From assembly GCA_001593855.1 (NCBI GenBank), contig LUCC01000001.1, positions 1 through 43,663 on the forward strand: a stretch of 43,663 nt of DNA. Direction: 5' to 3'. The notes below the pieces were generated by a model, which was not told the DNA's origin, ran no database searches, and saw nothing but the letters and a program-made list of their open reading frames with translations. Source of the DNA: Candidatus Hecatellales archaeon B24 (GTDB taxonomy: Archaea; Thermoproteota; Bathyarchaeia; Hecatellales; Hecatellaceae). Shown piece after piece: positions 1,364-18,012 of this stretch (positions are counted from its first letter, which is position 1; each line of letters begins with the position of its first letter). Made by a program: the position numbers and the translations under genes.

Positions 1364-2041
1364 TCAAAGTTTATGATAAGCTTTCCCCGAAGGGCAGAGT
1401 CTTCTAACCGGGCATTCATGGCATTTAGGGTTTCGCGCTGAACAGTATTTTTTGCCGAGGTTTAAAAGGAGAAGGTGGGCTTCAGCTCTGCCTCCTTCCG
1501 GTATAAGCCGCTCATAAGCAGCCCTCACCTCATCGTAATCTTTGGAATCTGAAACCTCAAGCCTCCTAGCTAAGGTGAAGAGGTGGGTGTCAATGGGGAT
1601 AACGGGAGCCTCTGCTGAGAAGGCTAAAACCACGTCAGCCGTCTTGAAGCCGACTCCTGGAAGACCTAGGAGAAGCCTCCGCGCCTCTTCCACAGGTTTC
1701 TTTAAAACCTTTGAAAGGCTTCCGTTAAACTCTTCAACGATTTTCTTGGAAACCTGCTTAAGCCTTGCCGCTTTAACCTTGGCAAGTCCGGCGCATCGAA
1801 TATGCTTGGCGATTTCCCCTTCACCCATTCCGGCAAGAACCCTAGAGCTCAGCCTGCCCACCGCCTCCTCCAGCCTCTCGAAAGCTCTTTCGCTGTTAAC
1901 GTCGGAGGTATGCTGGCTTAGGATGGCGGCCACCAAAAGCTCAAATGGGTCTTCAAGCCTATGCCTCATAGGGCCGAACCTTTCCCTCAGCTTCTCCAAG
2001 ATCTCCGCCATCCGTCTCCTCCGTGCAGCCAAATCCTTCAT
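1364..2041 (-). CDS. nth: Endonuclease III (HhH-GPD DNA glycosylase/AP lyase)
   Basis: 225 aa. Helix-hairpin-helix LGLPGVGFKTADVVL, catalytic-Asp region IPIDTHL, and a C-terminal 4Fe-4S motif CSARNPKCHECPVRRLC (C-x6-C-x2-C-x5-C). Confidence 0.85.
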   Translation of the reverse strand: MKDLAARRRRMAEILEKLRERFGPMRHRLEDPFELLVAAILSQHTSDVNSERAFERLEEAVGRLSSRVLAGMGEGEIAKHIRCAGLAKVKAARLKQVSKKIVEEFNGSLSKVLKKPVEEARRLLLGLPGVGFKTADVVLAFSAEAPVIPIDTHLFTLARRLEVSDSKDYDEVRAAYERLIPEGGRAEAHLLLLNLGKKYCSARNPKCHECPVRRLCPSGKAYHKL

Positions 2042-2086
2042 CGCAAGGCCTTCCCCCTTTCAACTTTAATAAGCCATTACTGCTTA

Positions 2087-2437
2087 ATGCCTTTCGGAAT
2101 GGAGCCTAAAATACGAAGGGAAACCTTAAGCAGGCAGGGAAGAACCTTCACCGTTTACCTCTTAGAATTAGAAAACGCCGTCGTCAGCTTTTTCTTCGAA
2201 GAGGAAAAGTTTAGGCTTGGAACCTTGGCTCTAGCTCTTCCAAGAACCCTCCAGCCTCCAGGCCTTGGAAGCTCAAGCATTCTCCTAGGCCATAAAAACA
2301 TTAACATAGCAAGAATTCTCGCTGAATACCTGTCTTCAAGGTATGGTAAGCTCTCTTTAGCCTCCGTTTTCCTCCAAAAGGAAGCAGATTTTGAGGGAGC
2401 GAGAAACCTTCTGGAATTGGCTAAAACCTTGAAATAA
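2087..2437 (+). CDS. Hypothetical small protein
   Basis: The track ORF 1961..2437 overlaps the nth start, so I trimmed it to the first ATG (2087) downstream of nth. Its composition looks more protein-like than the antisense ORF 2155..2472. No family recognised. Confidence 0.4.
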   Translation: MPFGMEPKIRRETLSRQGRTFTVYLLELENAVVSFFFEEEKFRLGTLALALPRTLQPPGLGSSSILLGHKNINIARILAEYLSSRYGKLSLASVFLQKEADFEGARNLLELAKTLK

Positions 2438-2458
2438 GACTTTAAAACGTTTATTTTT

Positions 2459-3022
2459 ATGGGGTTAACCATCCAATTTTTTGGAATCCGAAAAGAGGGC
2501 CCTCCGATAGCAAAGTTTAAAGAATACGGAACTGTATCCCTATTGGGAGCTTCTTTGGATGAAAGCCTGAAAAGCCTTAAAGACGTTCAAAACTGGATTA
2601 AAACCGTTTATAATGACCCGATAGCAAAAATACTAATAGAAAACAGCAATTTAACAGAAATACAGCTTGAAACGCTCTTAATTGACGTTTTATCCGATTA
2701 TTTTACAGATAAAGAGATAAAAATCGAGGAAAAAGCTAAATTACGCATTAAAGGGGAAATTAGCAAAGGAGCGTTCAACAGAATTTTAAAACAGGCGAAA
2801 AGAAACATAATACACTCAATTTACACCCTAATCCTACTTCAATACCTTGGATTAATAAGCCTGACAACCCTCAGAAAATACCTAGAAATCCCGGAAAAAA
2901 TAAAAGAATACATGGAAGCCTTAAAAACTGCAAAAGAAAAAGAAGAGGCTGAATTTCTAAGAGAAGAGCTGAAAAAACTCCTAACAACCCTTGCAGACCA
3001 CAAAAACATTAAAAAAGAATAG
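2459..3022 (+). CDS. Hypothetical protein encoded by a low-GC segment; possible sigma-region-4/Tfx-like HTH
   Basis: 187-aa K/E/I/L-rich ORF with no competing frame. The segment LRIKGEISKGAFNRILKQAKRNI weakly resembles a sigma-r4/Tfx-type recognition helix. The DNA is clearly more AT-rich than neighbouring genes. Confidence 0.5.
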   Translation: MGLTIQFFGIRKEGPPIAKFKEYGTVSLLGASLDESLKSLKDVQNWIKTVYNDPIAKILIENSNLTEIQLETLLIDVLSDYFTDKEIKIEEKAKLRIKGEISKGAFNRILKQAKRNIIHSIYTLILLQYLGLISLTTLRKYLEIPEKIKEYMEALKTAKEKEEAEFLREELKKLLTTLADHKNIKKE

Positions 3023-3352
3023 TGTGACGTCACATGAACTGTGATATCACGTAATACGCTGTGACCTGTAACGTGATATCACCATTAAAGCCCATTAGAA
3101 CTAAAAACAAGCTTAAAAAGCCTTATTTAGCCAGAAAAGAAAGCTTTAGAAAAATATCACCTTATGATATAGCAGCTGTGATATCACAACATTTAAATTG
3201 TTAAAAAGGATAAAATAAGATTTAGAGGCGGATTAAAAGCTTGTTTCGGGGTTTAATTGCATGTGAGGTGTGACGTCACGTGATTTCTGTGAGGTGCACC
3301 GTGATGTCTCATGTGATTCTTTTGGGAGGGTGACATCATGCTTGATATCACA
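3023..3352. repeat. Array of GTGAYRTCAC palindromes in three clusters separated by AT-rich spacers
   Basis: Perfect 10-bp palindromes: GTGACGTCAC at 3024 and 3270, GTGATATCAC at 3041, 3073 and 3178. The copies at 3023 and 3177 extend to the 12-bp form TGTGAYRTCACA. Degenerate copies start at 3301, 3330 and 3343, with half sites at 3061, 3154, 3263, 3289 and 3313. Confidence 0.9.
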
Positions 3353-4057
3353 TTAGCGTCAATAGTTTTATCCTTGACAAGTCTGGCAGCGGTAGCCTAC
3401 CTGTATATTGCCTACAAGGGACGCCAGACCCTCGACCTAAAAGGGTTTAACGACCTTTTTCAGGCTTCAACCATGCATTTCATAAGCCGACTGCGCGGGG
3501 TTGAGAGCCGCGTGGAGGAGGCCGTGAAGAAAGCAGAGGCAGTGGCGTCAAAAATTGACTTCCTCGACCGCAATTTAGAGGAACGCGATTTCTCGCTTAG
3601 CACCTTGGCAGGCAGCCTTAAAACTTTGATGGAGGCGCAGGTTAAGTTTTCAAGGGCACTACGGGATTTTCAGGGAAAGCTTCTGCAGGTGGATGGGCGG
3701 CTTAACTCTGTTGAGGCAGCTGTTAAAGGTTTAAAGAAGCCTTCACCGCGTACGCCAACTAGGCCGGTGTTTCCCAAGCCTCCCAGCCCCGTCCAAGGGG
3801 AAGTCTCCTTTACAAATTTAAATCCCACCGAGATGGAAGTTTTACGCTTGCTTTACGTCAGCGGGCCTAAGACTGCCTCCGAGGTCAGAGAAGTCATCGG
3901 CCGTAGCCGGGAACATACGGCCAGGCTTATGAAGAAGCTTTACTTGGAAGGTTATGTTGAACGGGACACGGAGGCAATTCCCTTCACCTATAAACTGAGC
4001 GAGAAAATAAAGAAAAGCTTTGAGTTTTCCGTTAAGAGCCGGAGGGAAGCCGAGTAG
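3338..4057 (+). CDS. Membrane-anchored coiled-coil protein with C-terminal MarR/TrmB-like winged helix
   Basis: 239 aa. N-terminal hydrophobic helix ITLASIVLSLTSLAAVAYLYIAY, a heptad-rich middle, a Pro-rich linker (PSPRTPTRPVFPKPPSP), and a C-terminal wHTH-like segment NPTEMEVLRLLYVSGPKTASEVREVIGRSREHTARLMKKLYLEGYVER. GGGAGGGTGA Shine-Dalgarno-like sequence lies before the ATG. Confidence 0.65.
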   Translation: MLDITLASIVLSLTSLAAVAYLYIAYKGRQTLDLKGFNDLFQASTMHFISRLRGVESRVEEAVKKAEAVASKIDFLDRNLEERDFSLSTLAGSLKTLMEAQVKFSRALRDFQGKLLQVDGRLNSVEAAVKGLKKPSPRTPTRPVFPKPPSPVQGEVSFTNLNPTEMEVLRLLYVSGPKTASEVREVIGRSREHTARLMKKLYLEGYVERDTEAIPFTYKLSEKIKKSFEFSVKSRREAE

Positions 4058-4059
4058 CT

Positions 4060-4482
4060 TCAGCGGCCTTCAATCACTGCCTCCACGTTAAGCTTATACT
4101 TTAACATGTTAGAGGGCCCTCTCCTTACGAGAAGCCCTTTATCACAGTATCGGCCTAGATAGGTTGACACCGTGCTGAGGCTTATGGGCTCCTTGAATTT
4201 CTCTTCGTAGGCCAGTTGAACATCTGAGGATGAAAACCATGTTAAGGGGAATTTTTCCCTTATAAGCTCAATTATTTTTTTGAATTTTGGTTTGGGAGGC
4301 TGGTAGATTTCTCCAGCGGCTTTGAAGGCCTCAGCTTTTTCAGGTCCTGACATCATTTCCACAAGGTCGATAAACTGGATTACTTTGTCTCGGCTGATTG
4401 GATGAGTAATTGAAAATGTGTAGTGGTTACCTCTGTCGTCTTCTATTTCGACTTTAACCTTTCGGACAACCAATTCGGACAA
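4060..4482 (-). CDS. Small hypothetical protein with probable C-terminal winged helix
   Basis: 140 aa. The C-terminal segment LSTVSTYLGRYCDKGLLVRRGPSNMLKYKL looks like a wHTH recognition helix plus wing. TTG start with an in-frame stop immediately upstream. Transcribed divergently from orc1 across the origin. Confidence 0.5.
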   Translation of the reverse strand: MSELVVRKVKVEIEDDRGNHYTFSITHPISRDKVIQFIDLVEMMSGPEKAEAFKAAGEIYQPPKPKFKKIIELIREKFPLTWFSSSDVQLAYEEKFKEPISLSTVSTYLGRYCDKGLLVRRGPSNMLKYKLNVEAVIEGR

Positions 4483-4647
4483 CCATCATTTCAATCTTCA
4501 CTATACTATAAAGGATTTGTGAATGTGAAGCAATAAATAATAAACACGGCTTTATAAGTGAAATAGGCTATAAATATTACTCTTAGAGTTTTACAGCTTC
4601 ACATAAACTGTCGGGGCAAACTCCTTGATTTTCCTGCTTTCTGAGAG

Positions 4648-4670
4648 TTTCCAGTGGAAATGAAGGGGTT
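4648..4670 (+). promoter_or_regulatory. Origin recognition box ORB1
   Basis: TTTCCAGTGGAAATGAAGGGGTT: a CCAGTGGAAA dyad core followed by a G-string, as in Pyrococcus and Sulfolobus ORB elements. Confidence 0.7.
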
Positions 4671-4722
4671 AAAAGGGCTTTAATCTGTGAAGTAAAATAT
4701 TTCATTGAAATTATGCAGTGGA

Positions 4723-4749
4723 GGCCCCACCCCTCTGTTTCTACTGGAG
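4723..4749 (-). promoter_or_regulatory. Origin recognition box ORB2 (inverted relative to ORB1)
   Basis: The minus strand reads CTCCAGTAGAAACAGAGGGGTGGGGCC: a CCAnnAGAAAC core plus G-string, convergent with ORB1. Confidence 0.65.
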
Positions 4750-4872
4750 AAGAAAGCCTCCACAAACCGATTGCACAAATGATTTAGAATGATATATTTC
4801 AACTACAAGATTTTTGTCTGGCTTCCTTATAAGTCAAACTCTAAACTAGGGATGGGAGGCCTCTAGCCCCTC

Positions 4873-4890
4873 TAAAAAATAAAAGAAATT
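4873..4890 (+). promoter_or_regulatory. Candidate TATA/BRE-like A-rich box of the orc1/cdc6 promoter
   Basis: TAAAAAATAAAAGAAATT lies about 50-65 nt upstream of the GTG start at 4938. Based on position and composition only. Confidence 0.3.
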
Positions 4891-4903
4891 TAGTGGAGCC
4901 CTC

Positions 4904-4930
4904 TTTACACTGGAAACATTGGGGTCCCCC
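4904..4930 (+). promoter_or_regulatory. Origin recognition box ORB3
   Basis: TTTACACTGGAAACATTGGGGTCCCCC: an ACTGGAAAC core plus GGGGT G-string, ending 7 nt before the orc1 start codon. Confidence 0.6.
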
Positions 4931-4937
4931 TTCCTAG

Positions 4938-6155
4938 GTGCGAAAAAGATTGGTGGACAGGCTTGAAAGTCTCTTCGAAAGATATGTAAGCGAATCCTAT
5001 ATTTTCACTAACCGTGACGTTTTAAGCCATGATTTCATTCCAAGCCAGCTTCCTCACCGTGAAGGAGAAATTCTAAGGCTCGGATCTATTCTAGCTCCAT
5101 CTCTCAGAAAAATGAAATGTTCCAATGTTTTTATTTACGGTAAAACGGGAACAGGCAAAACGGCTGTTTCAAAATATGTTTTGTCAAGGCTCTCAAAAAA
5201 GAGTGAGGAAATTGGAGGCAATGTTAAAGTCTGTTACGTTAACTGCAGAGTTGCTGGAACCGAGTATAGAATCGCTGCCTCCATATGCTCTTTTCTGGGC
5301 GTTAACATCCCCTTCACAGGACTGTCAACAGCTGAAGTTTTGAACAGGTTCACCGTCAGAATTAGAGAAGTTAAAGCCCACCTCATCACCGTTTTAGACG
5401 AAATTGACGTGCTGGTTAAAGGGTATGGGGACAGACTTCTCTACGAGCTTACAAGAATAAACGAAAATCTTGGAGCAGGAAGAGTTTCCCTGATAGGAAT
5501 ATCCAACGACCTTTACTTCAAAGAACTTTTAGACCCAAGAGTTCTAAGCAGCCTAAGCGAGGAAGAAGTGGTTTTCAAACCTTACACTGCCAGCCAGCTT
5601 AAGGACATCCTGCTTCAAAGAGCGAAGCTTGCCTTCAAGCCTGGAGCCCTCACGGATTCAGCCTTAAACCTCTGCGCGGCTCTAGCTGCCTCCGAACATG
5701 GCGACGCTAGGAGAGCCCTAGACCTGCTAAGGATTGCCGGAGAGCTTGCGGAGAGAGATAACGCTGAAAAAGTTGAAGACCGCCACATAAAGGAGGCGCA
5801 GAAAAGAATAGAGCACGACCGAGTTTTCGAGGCTCTTTCATCACTTCCCCTCCACTCAAAAATAATTCTACACGTACTTTACTCCGCGGATAAGGCTGGA
5901 AAGAAAGGGGTGACCACAGGGGAACTCTACGACAAGTATCTCTCAACTTGCAGCCAGCTTGGAGTTGAAAACTTGACCTCCCGGCGTGTGGGTGGACTGC
6001 TTAACGAGCTTGACATGCTTGGAGTTGTAAACGCGCAAATAGTCAACCTCGGCAGGTATGGCAGAACCAAGCAGATTAAAATAAAGGTTCCCGCGAAAAT
6101 TCTTGAGAAGGCCTTCAAGGAAGACCTTTACCTTGGAAGCCTCTTTAACAGTTAA
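4938..6155 (+). CDS. cdc6: Orc1/Cdc6 replication initiator (AAA+ ATPase with C-terminal winged helix)
   Basis: 405 aa. Walker A GKTGTGKT, Walker B VLDEID, sensor region, and the DARRALDLL motif typical of Orc1/Cdc6, with a C-terminal wH (RRVGGLLNELDMLGVV). GTG start. Confidence 0.95.
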   Translation: MRKRLVDRLESLFERYVSESYIFTNRDVLSHDFIPSQLPHREGEILRLGSILAPSLRKMKCSNVFIYGKTGTGKTAVSKYVLSRLSKKSEEIGGNVKVCYVNCRVAGTEYRIAASICSFLGVNIPFTGLSTAEVLNRFTVRIREVKAHLITVLDEIDVLVKGYGDRLLYELTRINENLGAGRVSLIGISNDLYFKELLDPRVLSSLSEEEVVFKPYTASQLKDILLQRAKLAFKPGALTDSALNLCAALAASEHGDARRALDLLRIAGELAERDNAEKVEDRHIKEAQKRIEHDRVFEALSSLPLHSKIILHVLYSADKAGKKGVTTGELYDKYLSTCSQLGVENLTSRRVGGLLNELDMLGVVNAQIVNLGRYGRTKQIKIKVPAKILEKAFKEDLYLGSLFNS

Positions 6156-11904: not shown

Positions 11905-12312
11905 GTGAAACCAGCATGCTTTAAAGCGTCCTCAGCGAAGGTTTATTTGAGGCTGAAAAGTTTGGGTGAAGACCTGAAGCGTATGGCTGAACTGCTCAAG
12001 ACCGGAGCCTCCATGTTGGAGGAGGCGTGCCCCCAATGCGGTTCCCCCCTCTTCAAGCTTACCTCCGGCGAAGTTTACTGTGCCAAATGCGACAGAAAGG
12101 TTCTAATAGTTAAGTCCGACGAGGAGGTGCCCTCAGCCTTAACTCCTATGGCGCTTTCAACCCTGGAGGAAACCTTAACCGTGAACCTTCAAAGACTTGA
12201 AAAGGCTGTTAGAGCTGAAACCAGCCCAGAAGCCCTGGAAGGCCTCCTGAAACTCGTAAACTCACATTTAGAGGCCCTAGAAAGAATCAGGCGTATAAGA
12301 AGGCAGAGCTAG
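11905..12312 (+). CDS. UPF0148 / Sjogren-scleroderma autoantigen-1-like zinc-ribbon protein
   Basis: MAELLKTGASMLEEACPQCGSPLFKLTSGEVYCAKCD is the characteristic N-terminal Zn-ribbon of this family. The true start may be the internal ATG at 11983. Confidence 0.6.
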   Translation: MKPACFKASSAKVYLRLKSLGEDLKRMAELLKTGASMLEEACPQCGSPLFKLTSGEVYCAKCDRKVLIVKSDEEVPSALTPMALSTLEETLTVNLQRLEKAVRAETSPEALEGLLKLVNSHLEALERIRRIRRQS

Positions 12313-14546
12313 TCTTCCTCTACGTAGCCAGCTTCAATCACCCTTCTAATTCTTTCAGCAAGCTTTTCTCCTACACCCTTAACCCTTGTAAGCTCCTTCC
12401 TGTCAGCCTTAAAGACTCCTTCAACAGAACCGAACTCCTTCAGAAGCCTCCTAGCAAGGGTTCGCTCGACACCTGGAAGCCCGGCGACAATGTACTCTTG
12501 AATTTCTCGGAGGGTTGGAGGCTTTCCCTCCCTTAAGGCGGGGTAAGCCTTCCCGGCAGCCTGCTCTCTTCTGGCCAAAAGAAGGATTACCCTGGCAGCG
12601 TCAGCAGGGTTTCTCACCCATATCACCGGGAGCTTGAAGTCGTAGAGGAGGCTTAGCATGGCGCCCAGTAAGGCTTGCGGCTGAACTCCCGCAGAGGCTT
12701 CTTCCCCCTCAACCAGCAGGAGGGCTCTGGGATACGTGGAAACAAGGCTTCGAGCCTGGCTGAAAAGCCTTCCATCCATGAGGCTTCGGGCGAAATCCTC
12801 CATCCGCTTACGTTCCACAGCCAGGTCTTGGGAGACCACGTAGTCGGCAACCTGGAGGCTTCTAAGCTCGATGCTGACTCCCAACCTTAGAAGCTCTCTG
12901 ACCACTTGGCTTCCCCCCTCACGATAGTCTACCAGCACCTTCAACTCCTCTCCTCCACCTGCCCTTCCAGTTTCAAGATAGAAATGGATGGTTTCCTGTT
13001 TAGGCTGAACGGCTTCCTCACGTTGAAGTTCGGTTATAGTCTTTCTCATCGCTTTCTCCCTGTGAACTCCAGCCCAGTAGTAGGCTTCGTCGCTGGTTCC
13101 CTCAGCCATGAAAATTACAACCTTGCCAGGCTGCCTCCTGCCAACTCTGCCCCGGCGCTGAACAAATCTAACCGCACTGGGGACATTATCATAGAAGACC
13201 ACCACGTCGGAAGCGGAGATGTCCAAGCCTTCCTCACCCACCTGGGTTGCCACCAGCACGTTGTAGACACCTTCTTTAAAGGCTTCTAAGGCTTCAACCT
13301 GCCTCCGCTGGCTTAACCCTTTATCCTCGCCTCTGCTGGCATGTCCCACAAGCCTTACCGCCCTAACGCCTTCAACGCCTTCAAGCTCTTCTTCGAGAAG
13401 CTTAGCGGTACTCCTGTAATTGGTGAAAACGATTATTCTCCTCGCACCTTCGGCTAGGAGGCTTCTTAAAACGCTGGGAAGCTTTTCAAGCTTAGGATGC
13501 TTAACCCCCCGGCTTAACCCTATAAGGGCAAAGTTTACAGCCTCAACGATTCTCCCATCGGAGAAAAGCATTTTAAGGCTTGTAGGAGGCCTACGGGAGG
13601 AAGCCTTATCCTTCAGCCTGGAAAAATATTCGTTGAAGGCTTCTAAGCCCTGCCCTTCCACTAGGGCTAAGCCCTGCCTAACCCTTTTAGCGTTTAAAGC
13701 TTCGCAGAGCAGCCTTAAGGCTTCCACGTTTCTCCCTTCAGCCGCCAGCATCCTTCTAAGCTGGCTTTCAGCTTCGGTTAGGGCTTTATAGCTTACCCTG
13801 CCTCCTCCCGGCAGGAGTTTACGCTCTTCAAGAAGCTTAATCTTCTCTTCCAAGTATTCCTTCAGGAGCAGTCTGACCTGCTTAAGGGCTCCTTCAAGCT
13901 TAACTTTAACCCATTCAACCTTCATCGCTTTAACGTAGGGTCTAACGTCCGGGCTTAGGTCTGTCCGCGCCTCCACGAATCTTATGGACAGGTTGCGTTT
14001 AACCTCTTCAATTTGCTCCCTAGTTGAGCCGGGGGAGGCTGTCAGGGCTAGGATAAGCGGGCTGCTGGAACGTTTAACGTACTGCTCGGCTAGGAAAACG
14101 TAGGAGTGGTTTCCAACAGCCCTATGCGCCTCGTCGAAAACCATTAAAACCACGTCTTCAAGCCTGAATCTTCCGGCTAGAACATCGTTTTCCATGGCTT
14201 GAGGCGTGGTGAAAACAATTTTGGCTTGGAGTTTTTCCCGCTTCTCCGGCGGGGTTTCACCTGTGAGGAGGGTGAAGTCTTCGGCTGGAAGCTTTAAGGT
14301 TTCCATGAAGTTTCTGTGGTGCTGGTGGGTTAGAGGCCTCGTAGGAGCTAGAACTACCACTTTTCCCTCCGGGTTTGCCTTAAGCCTTTCAGCGGCAGCC
14401 AGCATGGCTATAACGGTTTTACCCAGCCCCGTAGGCAAAACCACTAAGGTGTTCCCTTTAAGGCAGGTGGCAAGGATTTTCGCCTGGTAGAGGCGGAACT
14501 CTAAGGTTTCAGGCTTGACAAGCGGATGGGTGAAATACTGAGGCAT
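12309..14546 (-). CDS. hef: Hef: fork-structure helicase fused to an ERCC4/XPF-type nuclease (FANCM/XPF homologue)
   Basis: 745 aa. Helicase motifs PTGLGKT and DEAH, with SF2 C-terminal motifs. ERCC4 nuclease signature VADYVV...AVERKRMEDF and a terminal (HhH)2 (LPGVERTLARRLL...VKGVGEKLAERI). Confidence 0.9.
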   Translation of the reverse strand: MPQYFTHPLVKPETLEFRLYQAKILATCLKGNTLVVLPTGLGKTVIAMLAAAERLKANPEGKVVVLAPTRPLTHQHHRNFMETLKLPAEDFTLLTGETPPEKREKLQAKIVFTTPQAMENDVLAGRFRLEDVVLMVFDEAHRAVGNHSYVFLAEQYVKRSSSPLILALTASPGSTREQIEEVKRNLSIRFVEARTDLSPDVRPYVKAMKVEWVKVKLEGALKQVRLLLKEYLEEKIKLLEERKLLPGGGRVSYKALTEAESQLRRMLAAEGRNVEALRLLCEALNAKRVRQGLALVEGQGLEAFNEYFSRLKDKASSRRPPTSLKMLFSDGRIVEAVNFALIGLSRGVKHPKLEKLPSVLRSLLAEGARRIIVFTNYRSTAKLLEEELEGVEGVRAVRLVGHASRGEDKGLSQRRQVEALEAFKEGVYNVLVATQVGEEGLDISASDVVVFYDNVPSAVRFVQRRGRVGRRQPGKVVIFMAEGTSDEAYYWAGVHREKAMRKTITELQREEAVQPKQETIHFYLETGRAGGGEELKVLVDYREGGSQVVRELLRLGVSIELRSLQVADYVVSQDLAVERKRMEDFARSLMDGRLFSQARSLVSTYPRALLLVEGEEASAGVQPQALLGAMLSLLYDFKLPVIWVRNPADAARVILLLARREQAAGKAYPALREGKPPTLREIQEYIVAGLPGVERTLARRLLKEFGSVEGVFKADRKELTRVKGVGEKLAERIRRVIEAGYVEED

Positions 14547-14571
14547 GCTTCCAGCCTTACCATGATGAGGC

Positions 14572-17500
14572 CTATAGGAAGTCCGTTAGCTGGGCGGGCT
14601 TCCTTTTCTCCTCTCCTTCAGCCGAGAAGACGGCTCCTATTTCACTTTCCACGAGGATAACCCGCTGCTTGTAGTAGTCTTCTATCCCGTAGGCTTCAGC
14701 CAGCCACCTGGCAATTTTCAGATATTTCTCTACGGAGCCGCGGTAAACCGTTAAAGCCAGCTCGCCTCCGCAGCGGGGGCACCTTCCAACCAAAGGTATA
14801 CGCCTGAACCTCGCGTTGCAGCGTTTACAGCGGAAGGCTTGGGAGGCGAAAACCTTAAGGTTGCCTATGATGTCCCTCATGAGGTGGACGCCTAGAACCC
14901 GTTTGGCTACTTCCCTCACTTCGACACCTTCAATTTTACCCATAAGCTCCATCTGGCTTCTAAGCTTTTCAGCCATGGTTTTAAGCCTTTTATACGTGTT
15001 CTCCCTGACACCCTCGTTAATGTTTGAAACCTCGTGGGCGTACCTGTAGCCCTCATACTGGTCAGGCCTCCCCAGCCGCTGCATAACCATGCTTACCAGC
15101 GAAGCTACATGCTTAGGAGGAGGCTCCTCAAGGCTTCTAAGGTAAAACTCTAAGGGGTATCGGGCTGAAAGGTCTAAGCTCCAAACCTGGTCGTCTACTT
15201 CCAGCGGGTTTACCACGGGCTGAAGCAGCATAGGCGAGTCCATTAACCCTCCAATCTGGGCTGGAAGATACTGGCGGGAGAAGTTTAAGAGCACGTCTAA
15301 GGCAAGCATTACGGAGTCTTCATCGCCGTCGCAGTCCCTCCGCTTAGCTGAAATCCACAGAGGATGCGAATAGCATACGTTATGTTTGGTGAAGCCTATG
15401 ATGCGGCCTAAAACCCCGCATAGGGTGTGAGGTGAAAGCCCTACAATCAGGTGGCCTACCAGGTCTTCTCTCCCTGCAATCCTGTAAAACCTTGGAAGCC
15501 TGTAGAATCTTTCAAGCAGCTCGTCTAGGAAGCCTGCAACCTTAACCAGGAACTCCGCACACTTCTCAGAGACTACGACGTCCTGGACTTTAAGCTCGCA
15601 GGTTTGCTCCGGGCTTTCCAAGGGCTTTCCATCCATGTCAACGGTGTATCCCAGCTCTCTAAGCTTTTCCACGGAAACCCCTATCTCGGAAGGCTTGAAA
15701 TGGGTTAGAGGAGCATTGGTAGAGTCAAACCTTACAGTTCCATCCTTGAAAACGGTTAAGCCGAACTTGGCTCTTAGAATACCTTTTTCAACGGGTTCAG
15801 GAATCTTCGCCTCGTTCATTAAGCCTTTAACTCCCTTCACGGTCTCCGGAATGGATAGGCCAAGCCTCTTAGAAGCTCTTTCAAGCAGGCTTCCAAGGTT
15901 TACAGGCTGCCTGGCGTAGGCTGCAGCTTCAACCCCGCATTTAGGGCAGGTGGAAGCTTCAAGAGGCCTTAAACATTTCGGGCAGACCTTGACGGGAAGG
16001 GTTCTGCCTCCGCAGAGGGAGCATTGAGCGTCGAAGGTTTCAACCCCGCAGCCCGGGCATTTCCGCTTTGCAATTTCAACTTCAACAGGTTTTCCAGCGG
16101 CTTCCACCAAGTTACGCTGGAGACCTCCTGCAAGCCCTACGGGGAACAGCACGTTGACAGGAGGCCTCATACGCCTCTCCTTAGCCTTCTCAGGTCTTCC
16201 CATCCTTACGCCTACAAACCTCGCATACTTGTCTTTAACTTCGAAGCCTGCTAGGAGGCTTACAAGCTTTAGGGGGGTCTGGCCTCCATCTGCAATAGGC
16301 TCAGCTTCAACCCTCCCAATTCCAAGGCAGTAGGCCAGTGGGGCTGCATCCTGGCTTCCAATCAGAATTTTCCCGTGACCTACTAGGTGGGGAACGAGAA
16401 GTCTTTCCAGAAGGCTTTTCACCTGGCTGTTTTCCTGAAGGGTTATAGACTGGGCGAACCCGTCTGCCCATTCAATCCTTGCCTGAGCTATAAGCCCTCG
16501 AAGAACCAGGATTTCCTCTACCGTAAGGTTTCTCCAGAAGTAGGTGTAGGCCGGGTGGAGGGAAACCTTAAGGCTGGCTGAAAGCTTCAGGGCTTCCTCA
16601 GCGGTAGGCTGAAAGCTTAGAGGCTTCTCAAGGAAGGCTTCAAGCCTTCCACGGTTCACCCCTGCCCTCCTAGAAGCTTCCTCCAAGGATTCTCCGCAGG
16701 CTTCCTGAACGGCTTTGCCGAGTTCCCAAGCCCACCATTCCTCTACGAAGCTTGAAGGCACCAACGGCTTATCGTTTTCGTAGAACTCAGCGTAGGAGAC
16801 GAGGAGGTCGCCTAGGAAGAGGATTTTCCCTATTTCACCTTGAACCTTTAAGGCTTCTCCAGGGCTTCTAACCCTGATAACGCTGCCTGACTTAAGTTTT
16901 ACAATGGGAGGCTCGATGGTTTCAACAGCTCCAACGATTCCTCCTTTACCTGGAAGCTCCAGTTTAAGCTGGGTTCCAACGGCTATGAAGCCTTCTAGGA
17001 TGGCCATGGTTGCAGGGTGCACGCCTACGCTGGTAAGCCCTGTGTTCCGGGCACGCCCATACCTAAGCCTGAACCTACCCTCATACTTGGGGGCGGGAAA
17101 GGAGAAAACAGGCCTTCCGGCGATAATATCTTGGAGGTATCCGGCTTCATCTTCCTCAGCCTTCCCGGCAACCACGTTTTTAAGCCAGTCCCAGCCTGGA
17201 AGATTCAGGTCTTTAACAGCTTTCCAAACCTTGGAGGCTCTCCCAGCAATACCGTCGTTTACAACCCTGAGGGCTCCTCCTCGAAGCCCGTTGGTTTCCA
17301 CGCTTGGAATATCCCGGAAGGTTGAAACCTCTGTGGGGTCCGTCTTTATCCCGGTAACTTCGACGGGAAGGTTGCGGAGCACGTACTCCAGGTTTTCATC
17401 GCTTATATGATATTGGAAGCGTCCAACCTCCCGTTCGTAGAGGCGGAGTTCCTCCAAGAAGCGTCCAACCTCATCGTCGCCAGCCCTCCAAGCCTCAAGC

Positions 17501-18012
17501 CCCATGATACGCCTCACGTAGTCGCCCAGCACCACCACCAACGCCTGTTCTGTTCCACCAGCAGACCTCATGGGGCCTGCGAAGTAAATGGCGAGGTGCG
17601 GCCCCTTCCTAGGCTTCCTTTTCACGGTCACCCTTGCTATTCCATGAATGTGGGCTGCAGTCACACCGTCGGTCAGAATAGCTGTTCCCGTCCTAACAGC
17701 CTGCTCCAAAGCTTTTTCAGGTTCAAAGCTTCCGAAGGCTCCGTAAACCACTTCCTCAGCTATTTTGAAGGCTAGAAGGGTTGGGGGAAGCCTGCTTAAC
17801 TCCCTTATACGTTTTCCAACCTTTGGAGGCCCTACGGTGTGCTCAACCCTGTCAGCCAGGTCCCTTGAAATTCTAACCTCCTCGTGGGCTGAGGTTTTAG
17901 GGTCAAAGCCTCTAGACTTCGCTTCGTCAGCTAGCTTGAAAAGCCTTTCAAGCTCTCCTTCAAGGTCTTCAAAGTATTTTTGGTAGGCAGGGCTGGCTTT
18001 AACCTCTGCCAA
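14572..18012 (-). CDS. polC: DNA polymerase D (Pol II) large catalytic subunit DP2
   Basis: 1146 aa. Its length, multiple Cys4 zinc modules (CPGCG...CSLCG, CPKC...CPKCG, CKRCN...CPRCG) and conserved blocks are typical of DP2. No intein-sized insertion is apparent. Confidence 0.9.
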   Translation of the reverse strand: MAEVKASPAYQKYFEDLEGELERLFKLADEAKSRGFDPKTSAHEEVRISRDLADRVEHTVGPPKVGKRIRELSRLPPTLLAFKIAEEVVYGAFGSFEPEKALEQAVRTGTAILTDGVTAAHIHGIARVTVKRKPRKGPHLAIYFAGPMRSAGGTEQALVVVLGDYVRRIMGLEAWRAGDDEVGRFLEELRLYEREVGRFQYHISDENLEYVLRNLPVEVTGIKTDPTEVSTFRDIPSVETNGLRGGALRVVNDGIAGRASKVWKAVKDLNLPGWDWLKNVVAGKAEEDEAGYLQDIIAGRPVFSFPAPKYEGRFRLRYGRARNTGLTSVGVHPATMAILEGFIAVGTQLKLELPGKGGIVGAVETIEPPIVKLKSGSVIRVRSPGEALKVQGEIGKILFLGDLLVSYAEFYENDKPLVPSSFVEEWWAWELGKAVQEACGESLEEASRRAGVNRGRLEAFLEKPLSFQPTAEEALKLSASLKVSLHPAYTYFWRNLTVEEILVLRGLIAQARIEWADGFAQSITLQENSQVKSLLERLLVPHLVGHGKILIGSQDAAPLAYCLGIGRVEAEPIADGGQTPLKLVSLLAGFEVKDKYARFVGVRMGRPEKAKERRMRPPVNVLFPVGLAGGLQRNLVEAAGKPVEVEIAKRKCPGCGVETFDAQCSLCGGRTLPVKVCPKCLRPLEASTCPKCGVEAAAYARQPVNLGSLLERASKRLGLSIPETVKGVKGLMNEAKIPEPVEKGILRAKFGLTVFKDGTVRFDSTNAPLTHFKPSEIGVSVEKLRELGYTVDMDGKPLESPEQTCELKVQDVVVSEKCAEFLVKVAGFLDELLERFYRLPRFYRIAGREDLVGHLIVGLSPHTLCGVLGRIIGFTKHNVCYSHPLWISAKRRDCDGDEDSVMLALDVLLNFSRQYLPAQIGGLMDSPMLLQPVVNPLEVDDQVWSLDLSARYPLEFYLRSLEEPPPKHVASLVSMVMQRLGRPDQYEGYRYAHEVSNINEGVRENTYKRLKTMAEKLRSQMELMGKIEGVEVREVAKRVLGVHLMRDIIGNLKVFASQAFRCKRCNARFRRIPLVGRCPRCGGELALTVYRGSVEKYLKIARWLAEAYGIEDYYKQRVILVESEIGAVFSAEGEEKRKPAQLTDFL

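Follow-up and report, generated by a model that had tools for sequence, protein, structure and literature searches.

A conserved array of phased heptads beside the replication origin of Bathyarchaeia, a candidate operator array at the promoter of a membrane-anchored winged-helix gene

What is a dense run of short palindromes doing in the intergenic region that adjoins a chromosomal replication origin in an archaeon? The question is raised by a window of 43,663 nt of chromosomal DNA from a Hecatellales archaeon (Bathyarchaeia), the whole stretch analysed here, in which copies of GTGAYRTCAC crowd the region between two genes that we call p187 and p239. An earlier note on this DNA had described the palindromes and offered a multi-operator control region, a centromere-like partition site or an accessory origin as explanations; it missed both the 7-bp heptad that is the real unit of the array and the conservation of the array across the class. 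Our search of the literature on either 10-mer or on Bathyarchaeia origins found nothing relevant. We report that this cis element is strongly non-random, previously undescribed and kept across a whole archaeal class. In our estimate, with a probability of roughly 60%, it would serve as operator array for a locus-encoded regulator, at the promoter that drives a gene next to the origin whose product is a membrane-anchored winged-helix protein.

A phased heptad array kept across the class

A motif scan of the window agrees with the five perfect palindromes previously read at 3024, 3041, 3073, 3178 and 3270, and places neither 10-mer elsewhere. As shuffled sequence is expected to hold 0.02 such sites and none of 100 shuffles gave five, the density is not due to chance. 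Allowing one mismatch adds only the matches at 3301, 3330 and 3342, so that all eight of eight lie in the array (3024-3351) against 1.2 expected, and the seven in-phase half-site pairs of the window all fall within 3015-3360. The 12-bp extensions TGTGACGTCACA (3023) and TGTGATATCACA (3177) are present, as is the overlap of the motif at 3270-3283 with a second palindrome, GTGACGTCACGTGA. The sites form three clusters, and the two spacers between them, of 71 and 74 nt, are indeed AT-rich (70% and 72% AT vs 50% for the whole window); their sequence is not conserved.

One detail of the first description had to be amended, and a caveat applies to another. The lone half sites lie at 3061, 3263, 3280, 3289 and 3313, to which must be added a TATCAC at 3155-3160, which is what had been recorded as a half site at "3154"; the positions 3061, 3263, 3289 and 3313 given earlier stand. 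The three degenerate copies are all one-mismatch matches, and those at 3330 and 3342 are not kept in the closest relative of the window (L001, 97% protein identity), where each carries one more mismatch while the perfect five and the copy at 3301 are unchanged. We therefore discount these two, which are probably not functional sites. The window and L001 differ by eight substitutions, with none in the sites and about 1.5 expected there, a pair too similar to be informative on selection at the sites.

For the comparison across the class, one genome per species was scanned; at least 525 genomes carry a p239 homologue, and the best 80 loci were retrieved. Most comparative loci, referred to here by L numbers, were thus collected through p239 homologues. 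Half-site spacing was analysed in 73 non-redundant p187-p239 intergenic regions, where four distances dominate the counts: 7 bp between direct GTGA half sites (121 occurrences) and between direct TCAC half sites (74), and 6 bp from GTGA to TCAC, which is the 10-bp palindrome (103), or 13 bp (85). An oriented consensus built from 509 half sites reads T-GTGA-Y-R-T. The repeat unit is a 7-bp heptad, T-GTGA-Y-R, which occurs singly, head-to-head as GTGAYRTCAC, or in direct pairs at 7 bp. Runs are short (133 of two heptads, 77 of three, two of four and one of six). The two strands are used almost equally (482 GTGA, 432 TCAC), which fits recognition as double-stranded DNA.

In the sequence sampled, the phased sites are confined to this locus. 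Across loci, in-phase pairs reach a density of 14.1 per kb in the p187-p239 intergenic region and 2.3 per kb in the 600 nt upstream of p187, compared with 0.09-0.15 per kb within the coding sequences of p187 and p239 and 0.05 per kb in about 219 kb of downstream flanks that include oriC and orc1, the sampling of related loci amounting to about 0.5 Mb in total.

Among the 80 loci, the gene order p187, array, p239, p140 (on the opposite strand), oriC and orc1 recurs throughout the class. Contigs of close and distant relatives alike retain it, with p187 5' of p239 almost everywhere and with 1.3-5 kb between the array and oriC/orc1. A perfect GTGAYRTCAC, hereafter site A, stands at the end of the p187 homologue in nearly every locus, typically as YGTGAYRTCACAAATCACA, and in 64 of the 73 regions the p187 stop codon is the TGA within the first GTGA of site A (e.g. 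L049 2548-2551). Two loci that lack p187 (L057 and L215) keep the arrays, and there a thioredoxin-reductase-like gene ends likewise in the site A TGA; in L216 and L217, p187 is inverted and the heptad pair of site A is still found beside its 3' end. When orthologous intergenic regions of five Hecatellales were aligned, as the earlier note had proposed, only the sites and ATCACAAnnTTTAAAT were conserved, the latter being invariant. The array of the window is the Hecatellales version of an element that occupies the same place in essentially every Bathyarchaeia genome examined.

The locus was also recovered by DNA alone, with no protein reference. An 18-mer from site A, searched in metagenomes, matched at least 120 loci, of which about 105 of the 120 listed are the same p187-p239 locus; the other 15 are isolated matches in unrelated DNA of low coding density and were taken as chance. 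Several further leads were dropped. A recurrent upstream "third" perfect site in many loci is a coding coincidence, formed by NAD synthase codons for Cys-Asp-Ile-Thr. An origin from mobile elements found no footing either: no relative of the p239 family turned up among the viral contigs searched, the ten viral matches to a generic four-heptad pattern are isolated, several of them near-identical, with no heptads nearby, and PHROGs and PADLOC returned generic winged-helix matches only. Separately, some 600 nt 5' of the p187 homologue, a class I/II aminotransferase gene carries within its coding sequence a phased site, GTGAtaaGTGAcgTCACatcaTCA, that shows conservation of the DNA itself (L034 1620-1660, L028 1600-1625 and about 12 other loci).

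Promoter geometry and the candidate binder

The gene that the array most likely controls is p239. A TATA-like box between the second and third clusters (Table 1) would place the start of transcription near 3220-3225 on this predicted promoter. The palindrome 3177-3188 ends 4 nt before the box and hence overlaps the would-be TFB recognition element (BRE). In other Bathyarchaeia, a CTTAAAT/TTTAAA box lies at a fixed distance from pairs of heptads. In most members of the class outside Hecatellales, the upstream double heptad stands 44-50 nt before the CTTAAAT box; the downstream one begins 21-22 nt 3' of the TATA box, where the start site is expected, in 31 of 44 loci, and the two are 68-70 bp apart in 31 of 54. 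The usual succession is site A, double heptad, TATA box, double heptad and, ahead of the start codon, two or three TCAC half sites. An archaeal operator should show just such a fixed geometry around the TATA box: in archaea, factors positioned on the box or 3' of it prevent the recruitment of RNA polymerase, and those positioned 5' of it can activate (PMC4158304). Among the explanations first offered for the palindromes, the multi-operator control region is the best supported, with sites that flank or abut a conserved TATA box 5' of a winged-helix gene and with sites and TATA box as the only conserved blocks.

We propose that a DNA-binding protein encoded at the locus would bind the heptads cooperatively and repress the promoter by occluding the BRE, the TATA box and the start site, while the flanking clusters would add avidity or permit looping. 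In the window, the sites involved would be the palindrome that ends 4 nt 5' of the TATA box, a cluster some 130 nt upstream and a further one within the predicted leader. As the motif was seen nowhere but at this locus in the sequence that we examined, a dedicated, locally encoded regulator is suggested. Of the neighbouring proteins, the likeliest binder is the TrmB/MarR-like winged-helix protein p239, an assignment to which we give somewhat less than even odds and which would amount to negative autoregulation. What would then be the regulator's own gene does have sites that overlap the BRE, the TATA box or the start of transcription, on a promoter that is itself predicted.

Three elements make up most of p239: a predicted membrane helix at the N terminus, some 100 residues of coiled coil and a C-terminal winged helix. 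The last of these passes the Pfam cut-offs for both MarR (29.8 bits) and TrmB (28.8 bits, cut-off 25.6) and, searched in isolation against the PDB, matches a MarR protein (E = 3.5e-4), while the profile of the whole family retrieves coiled coils only and the coiled coil itself has weak Pfam matches to Tropomyosin, DUF1664 and Laminin_II. The family counts 1575 detectable homologues, in which the recognition helix REHTARLMKKL...GY..R is invariant, and 28 of 30 members have an N-terminal hydrophobic window above 1.6. The basic residues that follow the transmembrane helix predict, by the positive-inside rule, a cytoplasmic winged helix. The coiled coil would form a dimer from which the two winged helices hang on flexible Pro-rich linkers, and heads so mounted could tolerate heptads in both direct and inverted arrangement. 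Other likenesses of the winged helix (3800-4054), all weak and not significant, were also seen: to a ParB helix-turn-helix (IGKSRSHVANTMRLL vs IGRSREHTARLMKKL, E = 0.1), to AspA (E = 0.4-0.6) and to ScpB (Pfam E = 0.003).

Four observations make p239 the best candidate. Its winged helix is of the TrmB family, whose members recognize half sites of the form TATCAC; neither its recognition helix nor the GTGA core varies; arrays are retained in loci where p140 (L009-L013, L015) or p187 (L057, L215) was not found, which makes p239 the sole neighbour present wherever arrays were seen; and the loci anchored on the motif by the 18-mer search, where enough flank is available, never have p187 without p239. 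The co-occurrence of p239 and the array is, however, partly due to construction, as most loci were retrieved through p239.

Further points weigh against the operator reading. We infer the promoter assignment, the repression and the identity of the binder from sequence. A distance of 6-7 bp between the centres of half sites is what ribbon-helix-helix proteins, omega among them (PMC9499535), typically show and would be unusual for a winged-helix dimer; at the locus, no protein of the ribbon-helix-helix type was identified. Several sites lie far from the promoter, namely site A, which stays with the inverted p187 3' end in L216 and L217, the site in the aminotransferase gene and, in some loci, sites in the p239 coding region. 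In the window, the third cluster lies about 40-130 nt past the predicted start site and not on it. Finally, a permanent membrane anchor would be unusual on a plain repressor.

Neighbouring genes and the origin

The coordinates of the sites, of the three genes of the module and of the origin are collected in Table 1.

Table 1. Features of the array and its surroundings in the window
Feature	Position	Strand	Remarks
p187, helical protein of ~157 aa	2543-3022	+	ORF opens at 2459; stop codon TAG at 3020-3022
Site A counterpart, 12-bp palindrome TGTGACGTCACA	3023-3034		Adjoins p187 stop codon
Palindrome TGTGATATCAC	3040-3050		Followed by GTAATAC(G)CTGTGA, kept in relatives at ~50% protein identity
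Lone GTGA half site (TGTGAC)	3061-3064	+	Invariant in the five-sequence Hecatellales alignment
Palindrome GTGATATCAC	3073-3082		Closes cluster 1
AT-rich spacer 1	3083-3153		71 nt, 70% AT; unalignable among relatives
Lone TATCAC half site	3155-3160		
12-bp palindrome TGTGATATCACA	3177-3188		Ends 4 nt 5' of the TATA-like box
TATA-like box TTTAAATT	3192-3199	+	Predicted p239 core promoter; conserved in the Hecatellales alignment
Start of cluster 3, GTGAggtGTGAcgTCACGTGA	3263-3283		Direct heptad pair, palindrome and overlapping TCACGTGA
Three direct GTGA half sites at 3289, 3301 (GTGATGTCTC) and 3313	3289-3316	+	Same in L001
Shine-Dalgarno-like GGGAGGG	3324-3330	+	p239 ATG at 3338
Degenerate copies GTGACATCAT and TTGATATCAC	3330 and 3342		Around p239 start codon
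p239	3338-4057	+	Transmembrane helix ~4-26, coiled coil ~45-135, Pro-rich linker, C-terminal TrmB/MarR-type winged helix 159-219
p140	4060-4482	-	Directed away from oriC; beta-beta-alpha unit, disordered linker, C-terminal winged helix
oriC	4644-4925		ORB GAGAGTTTCCAGTGGAAATGAAGGGGT at 4644-4670; second ATGCAGTGGAGGCCCCACCCC at 4712-4735; inverted copy at 4895-4925
orc1/cdc6	4938-6155	+	NCBIfam ORC1-type, E = 1e-146; Pfam Cdc6 lid and winged-helix domains

None of the three proteins encoded by the module has a dedicated Pfam family, and the window holds no paralogue of any of them. The homologues of p187 are 155-165 residues long with starts near 2543/2555 in the numbering of the window, share 45-65% identity and lie upstream of the array in nearly all loci. 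An AlphaFold2 model of p187 is all helical (pLDDT 85); the protein belongs to no Pfam family, has no match in the PDB by sequence and none by Foldseek below E = 1. A likeness to sigma-70 region 4 was considered and is unconfirmed, no Pfam helix-turn-helix match recurring among 27 members. p140 matched no solved structure by sequence; its model (pLDDT 75) is related by Foldseek to the DNA-binding domains of Fur, RosR, MarR and ArsR (E ~1e-3, probability 1.0). A perfect 12-mer, TTCGGACAACCA, is present twice in tandem, 1 nt apart, at 4461-4485 across the p140 start codon (minus strand).

p140 and orc1 follow p239 either directly or after an inserted pair of genes, one of them HerA-like. This pair encodes a HerA-like ATPase (DUF87, 518 aa) and a 338-aa protein without Pfam match between p239 and p140 (L049 3544-6079); it is found in about one third of loci L019-L084 and moves p140 and orc1 about 3 kb away. 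In other lineages, a gene for a protein with an XRE-type helix-turn-helix and a CBS domain stands directly 5' of the p239 homologue (L018 2200-2790, L038 222-806, L216 9399-9998), with heptad sites upstream of the XRE/CBS-p239 pair.

The origin itself is distinct from the array. Origin recognition box (ORB) repeats are found in the 455-nt intergenic region between p140 and orc1, which therefore holds the predicted oriC, 1.3 kb from the array. Over 47 loci, the density of ORB cores is 2.4 per kb upstream of orc1 compared with 0.035 elsewhere, a roughly 70-fold enrichment, and 3023-3352 contains no match to the ORB consensus (TTCCAGTGGAAA plus a G-string). On the module's other side, the order 5' of p187 is a Snf7/CdvB homologue and endonuclease III (minus strand) and a 112-aa ORF. 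The ESCRT-III/Snf7 (CdvB-like) gene lies at 562-1218, 2 kb upstream of the array, and the genes for Hef (helicase and ERCC4 nuclease) and for the large subunit DP2 of PolD at 12309-18012, 8-13 kb downstream. The neighbourhood of the array is thus one of replication, repair and division genes, and the rest of the window holds housekeeping genes (Hef, PolD DP2, NadE, Tmk, SRP54 and others). The G+C content of 2001-5000, which covers the three-gene module and oriC, is 0.40-0.46 vs about 0.50-0.55 elsewhere in the window.

Alternative readings, known systems and significance

An operator region read by a protein other than p239 (p187, p140 or an unlinked regulator of the ribbon-helix-helix type, with one heptad per dimer) is, in our view, unlikely, if far from negligible. 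One argument for it comes from omega, the ParB of plasmid pSM19035, which is the closest formal analogue of the present system. Omega recognizes WATCACW heptads, direct and inverted, that overlap promoters and serve as both operator and centromere; the arrays comprise 7-10 contiguous heptads, of which at least four are needed for partition, and are bound by a ribbon-helix-helix dimer with a ParA partner (PMC9499535). The array shares the 7-bp unit and the ATCAC/GTGAT core, TGTGATA fitting WGTGATW, and, when compared feature by feature, its heptads are likewise direct and inverted, contiguous at 7-bp phasing and overlapping the promoter. The likeness ends there: the runs are mostly of two or three heptads, short of the 7-10 of omega; the genes alongside encode one helical and two winged-helix proteins, no ribbon-helix-helix protein or ParA having been found at the locus; and omega belongs to a Firmicute plasmid, the array to an archaeal chromosome. 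The resemblance in sequence is most likely convergent.

Other facts would suit p187 or p140 as the binder. Site A overlaps the p187 stop codon and moves with the inverted p187, more arrays lie upstream of p187, and both proteins also have invariant helices that may contact DNA. On the other side, p140 was not detected in several array-rich lineages and p187 is absent from two loci with arrays, p187 has no recognisable DNA-binding fold, and a motif unique to the locus favours a regulator encoded there over an unlinked one.

Less probable again is the reading in which p239 would tether the oriC-adjacent arrays to the membrane for positioning or segregation, or in which the arrays would be centromere-like, and promoter control, as for omega or AspA, would be a by-product. 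The operator reading and this one do not exclude each other. It would describe a ParA-less, class-wide system with omega-like heptads, a functional analogue of RicO-ricS or RacA-ram with p187 and p140 as accessory proteins. RacA-ram and Noc-NBS of B. subtilis are origin-to-membrane tethers. What speaks for such a role is the architecture of the p239 family, the position of the module beside oriC and orc1 across the class and the several clusters of sites per locus, some away from promoters; if p239 does bind the array, DNA that lies 1.3 kb away from oriC must be located at the membrane.

Precedents exist for this reading. The heptad arrays of omega are at once operator and centromere (PMC9499535). 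AspA of the Sulfolobus plasmid pNOB8 is a winged-helix dimer that spreads as a helical filament from a palindromic centromere 5' of its own gene and works with ParB and ParA, and the sites of AspA and SegB are possibly both centromere and operator (PMC5120986). As with AspA, and with SegB, whose sites lie 5' of segAB, the present array consists of archaeal palindromes upstream of the gene of a (here candidate) binder. It differs from both in its motif and proteins, p239 has no significant likeness to AspA, and neither AspA nor SegB has a membrane anchor. In RicO of S. aureus, a DNA-binding domain and a coiled coil are followed by a C-terminal amphipathic helix, and the protein fastens sites near the origin to the membrane, nine ricS sites being spread over about 700 kb (bioRxiv 10.64898/2026.03.06.710092). 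p239 is predicted from its sequence to have the parts found in RicO, RacA and Noc, namely a domain for DNA binding, a coiled coil and a membrane element, and the array that it may bind is near the origin; unlike in RicO, the membrane element is a predicted N-terminal transmembrane helix and the candidate sites lie within about 1 kb instead of being spread around the origin. Against tethering or a centromere also stand the lack of a ParA/SegA-type ATPase in the array operon, in the window and in the related loci examined, which sets the locus apart from the AspA and SegAB centromeres; the runs of only two or three heptads, where omega needs at least four contiguous ones; and the fixed TATA geometry, which promoter control alone explains.

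The remaining explanations are very improbable. In an accessory replication origin, the AT-rich spacers would act as unwinding elements between initiator-binding repeats. Two such spacers flanked by repeats with orc1 close by, and repeats in a long AT-rich intergenic region near orc1/cdc6 as at archaeal ORB origins, agree with this; yet canonical ORB repeats with an AT-rich stretch are present 1.3 kb off, directly 5' of orc1, and no ORB core occurs in the array, the spacer sequences are not conserved, that between clusters 2 and 3 holds the conserved TATA box, and no initiator gene other than orc1 is nearby. This part of the earlier proposal is thereby set aside. An RNA element (a structured leader or a small RNA transcribed from the repeats) deserves as little credence: cluster 3 does lie in the predicted 5' leader and 3015-3200 folds with z = -4.6, a trivial value as identical palindromes pair with one another, whereas shuffled sequences fold as well as the predicted leader does (3220-3345; z = -0.54), the window has no Rfam or tRNA match, a 10-nt palindrome cannot form a hairpin and the half sites are equal on both strands.

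At least as improbable is that the array is the Thermococcales glycolytic motif (TGM), TATCAC-N5-GTGATA, which is bound by TrmBL1/Tgr of the TrmB family (PMC4158304). The half site TATCAC/GTGATA had been correctly assigned to this system, and the array shares it, together with a candidate binder that has a TrmB-family winged helix and a control logic that would be set, as for the TGM, by the position of sites relative to BRE, TATA box and start (PMC4158304). Its half sites face the other way, however, overlapping as GTGAT|ATCAC with a 2-nt spacer or repeated directly at 7 bp: TCAC followed by GTGA at 9 nt occurs once in the 73 regions, compared with the 103 palindromes, and not in the window. 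Moreover, p239 has no sugar-binding effector domain but a membrane helix and a coiled coil, and nothing resembles a sugar-metabolism regulon, with no sites elsewhere in the window and the low pair density given above for downstream DNA in the 0.5-Mb sample. A last comparison concerns position only: haloarchaeal oapABC is a conserved three-gene cluster of unknown function by the main origin, opposite an orc gene (PMC7002104), as p187-p239-p140 is a three-gene cluster beside an origin; the orientation of the genes differs and no cis element is reported for oapABC.

An operator array at the p239 promoter thus accounts best for the locus, which now offers a precise, invariant cis element (T-GTGA-Y-R heptads and GTGAYRTCAC) with fixed promoter geometry, a class-wide three-gene module by oriC and orc1 and a specific candidate binder. 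Bathyarchaeia are among the most abundant archaeal groups of sediments, and to our knowledge almost nothing is known of their gene regulation; even if the array were an autoregulatory operator only, it would provide a first well-defined regulator-site pair for this class. The array would also give a marker of oriC in metagenome-assembled genomes. We know of little on how archaeal origins are positioned or segregated beyond SegAB and AspA-ParBA, and a role as tether or centromere-like site is the minority reading that is of interest for archaeal origin biology: were p239 the binder, its architecture would tie origin-adjacent DNA to the membrane.

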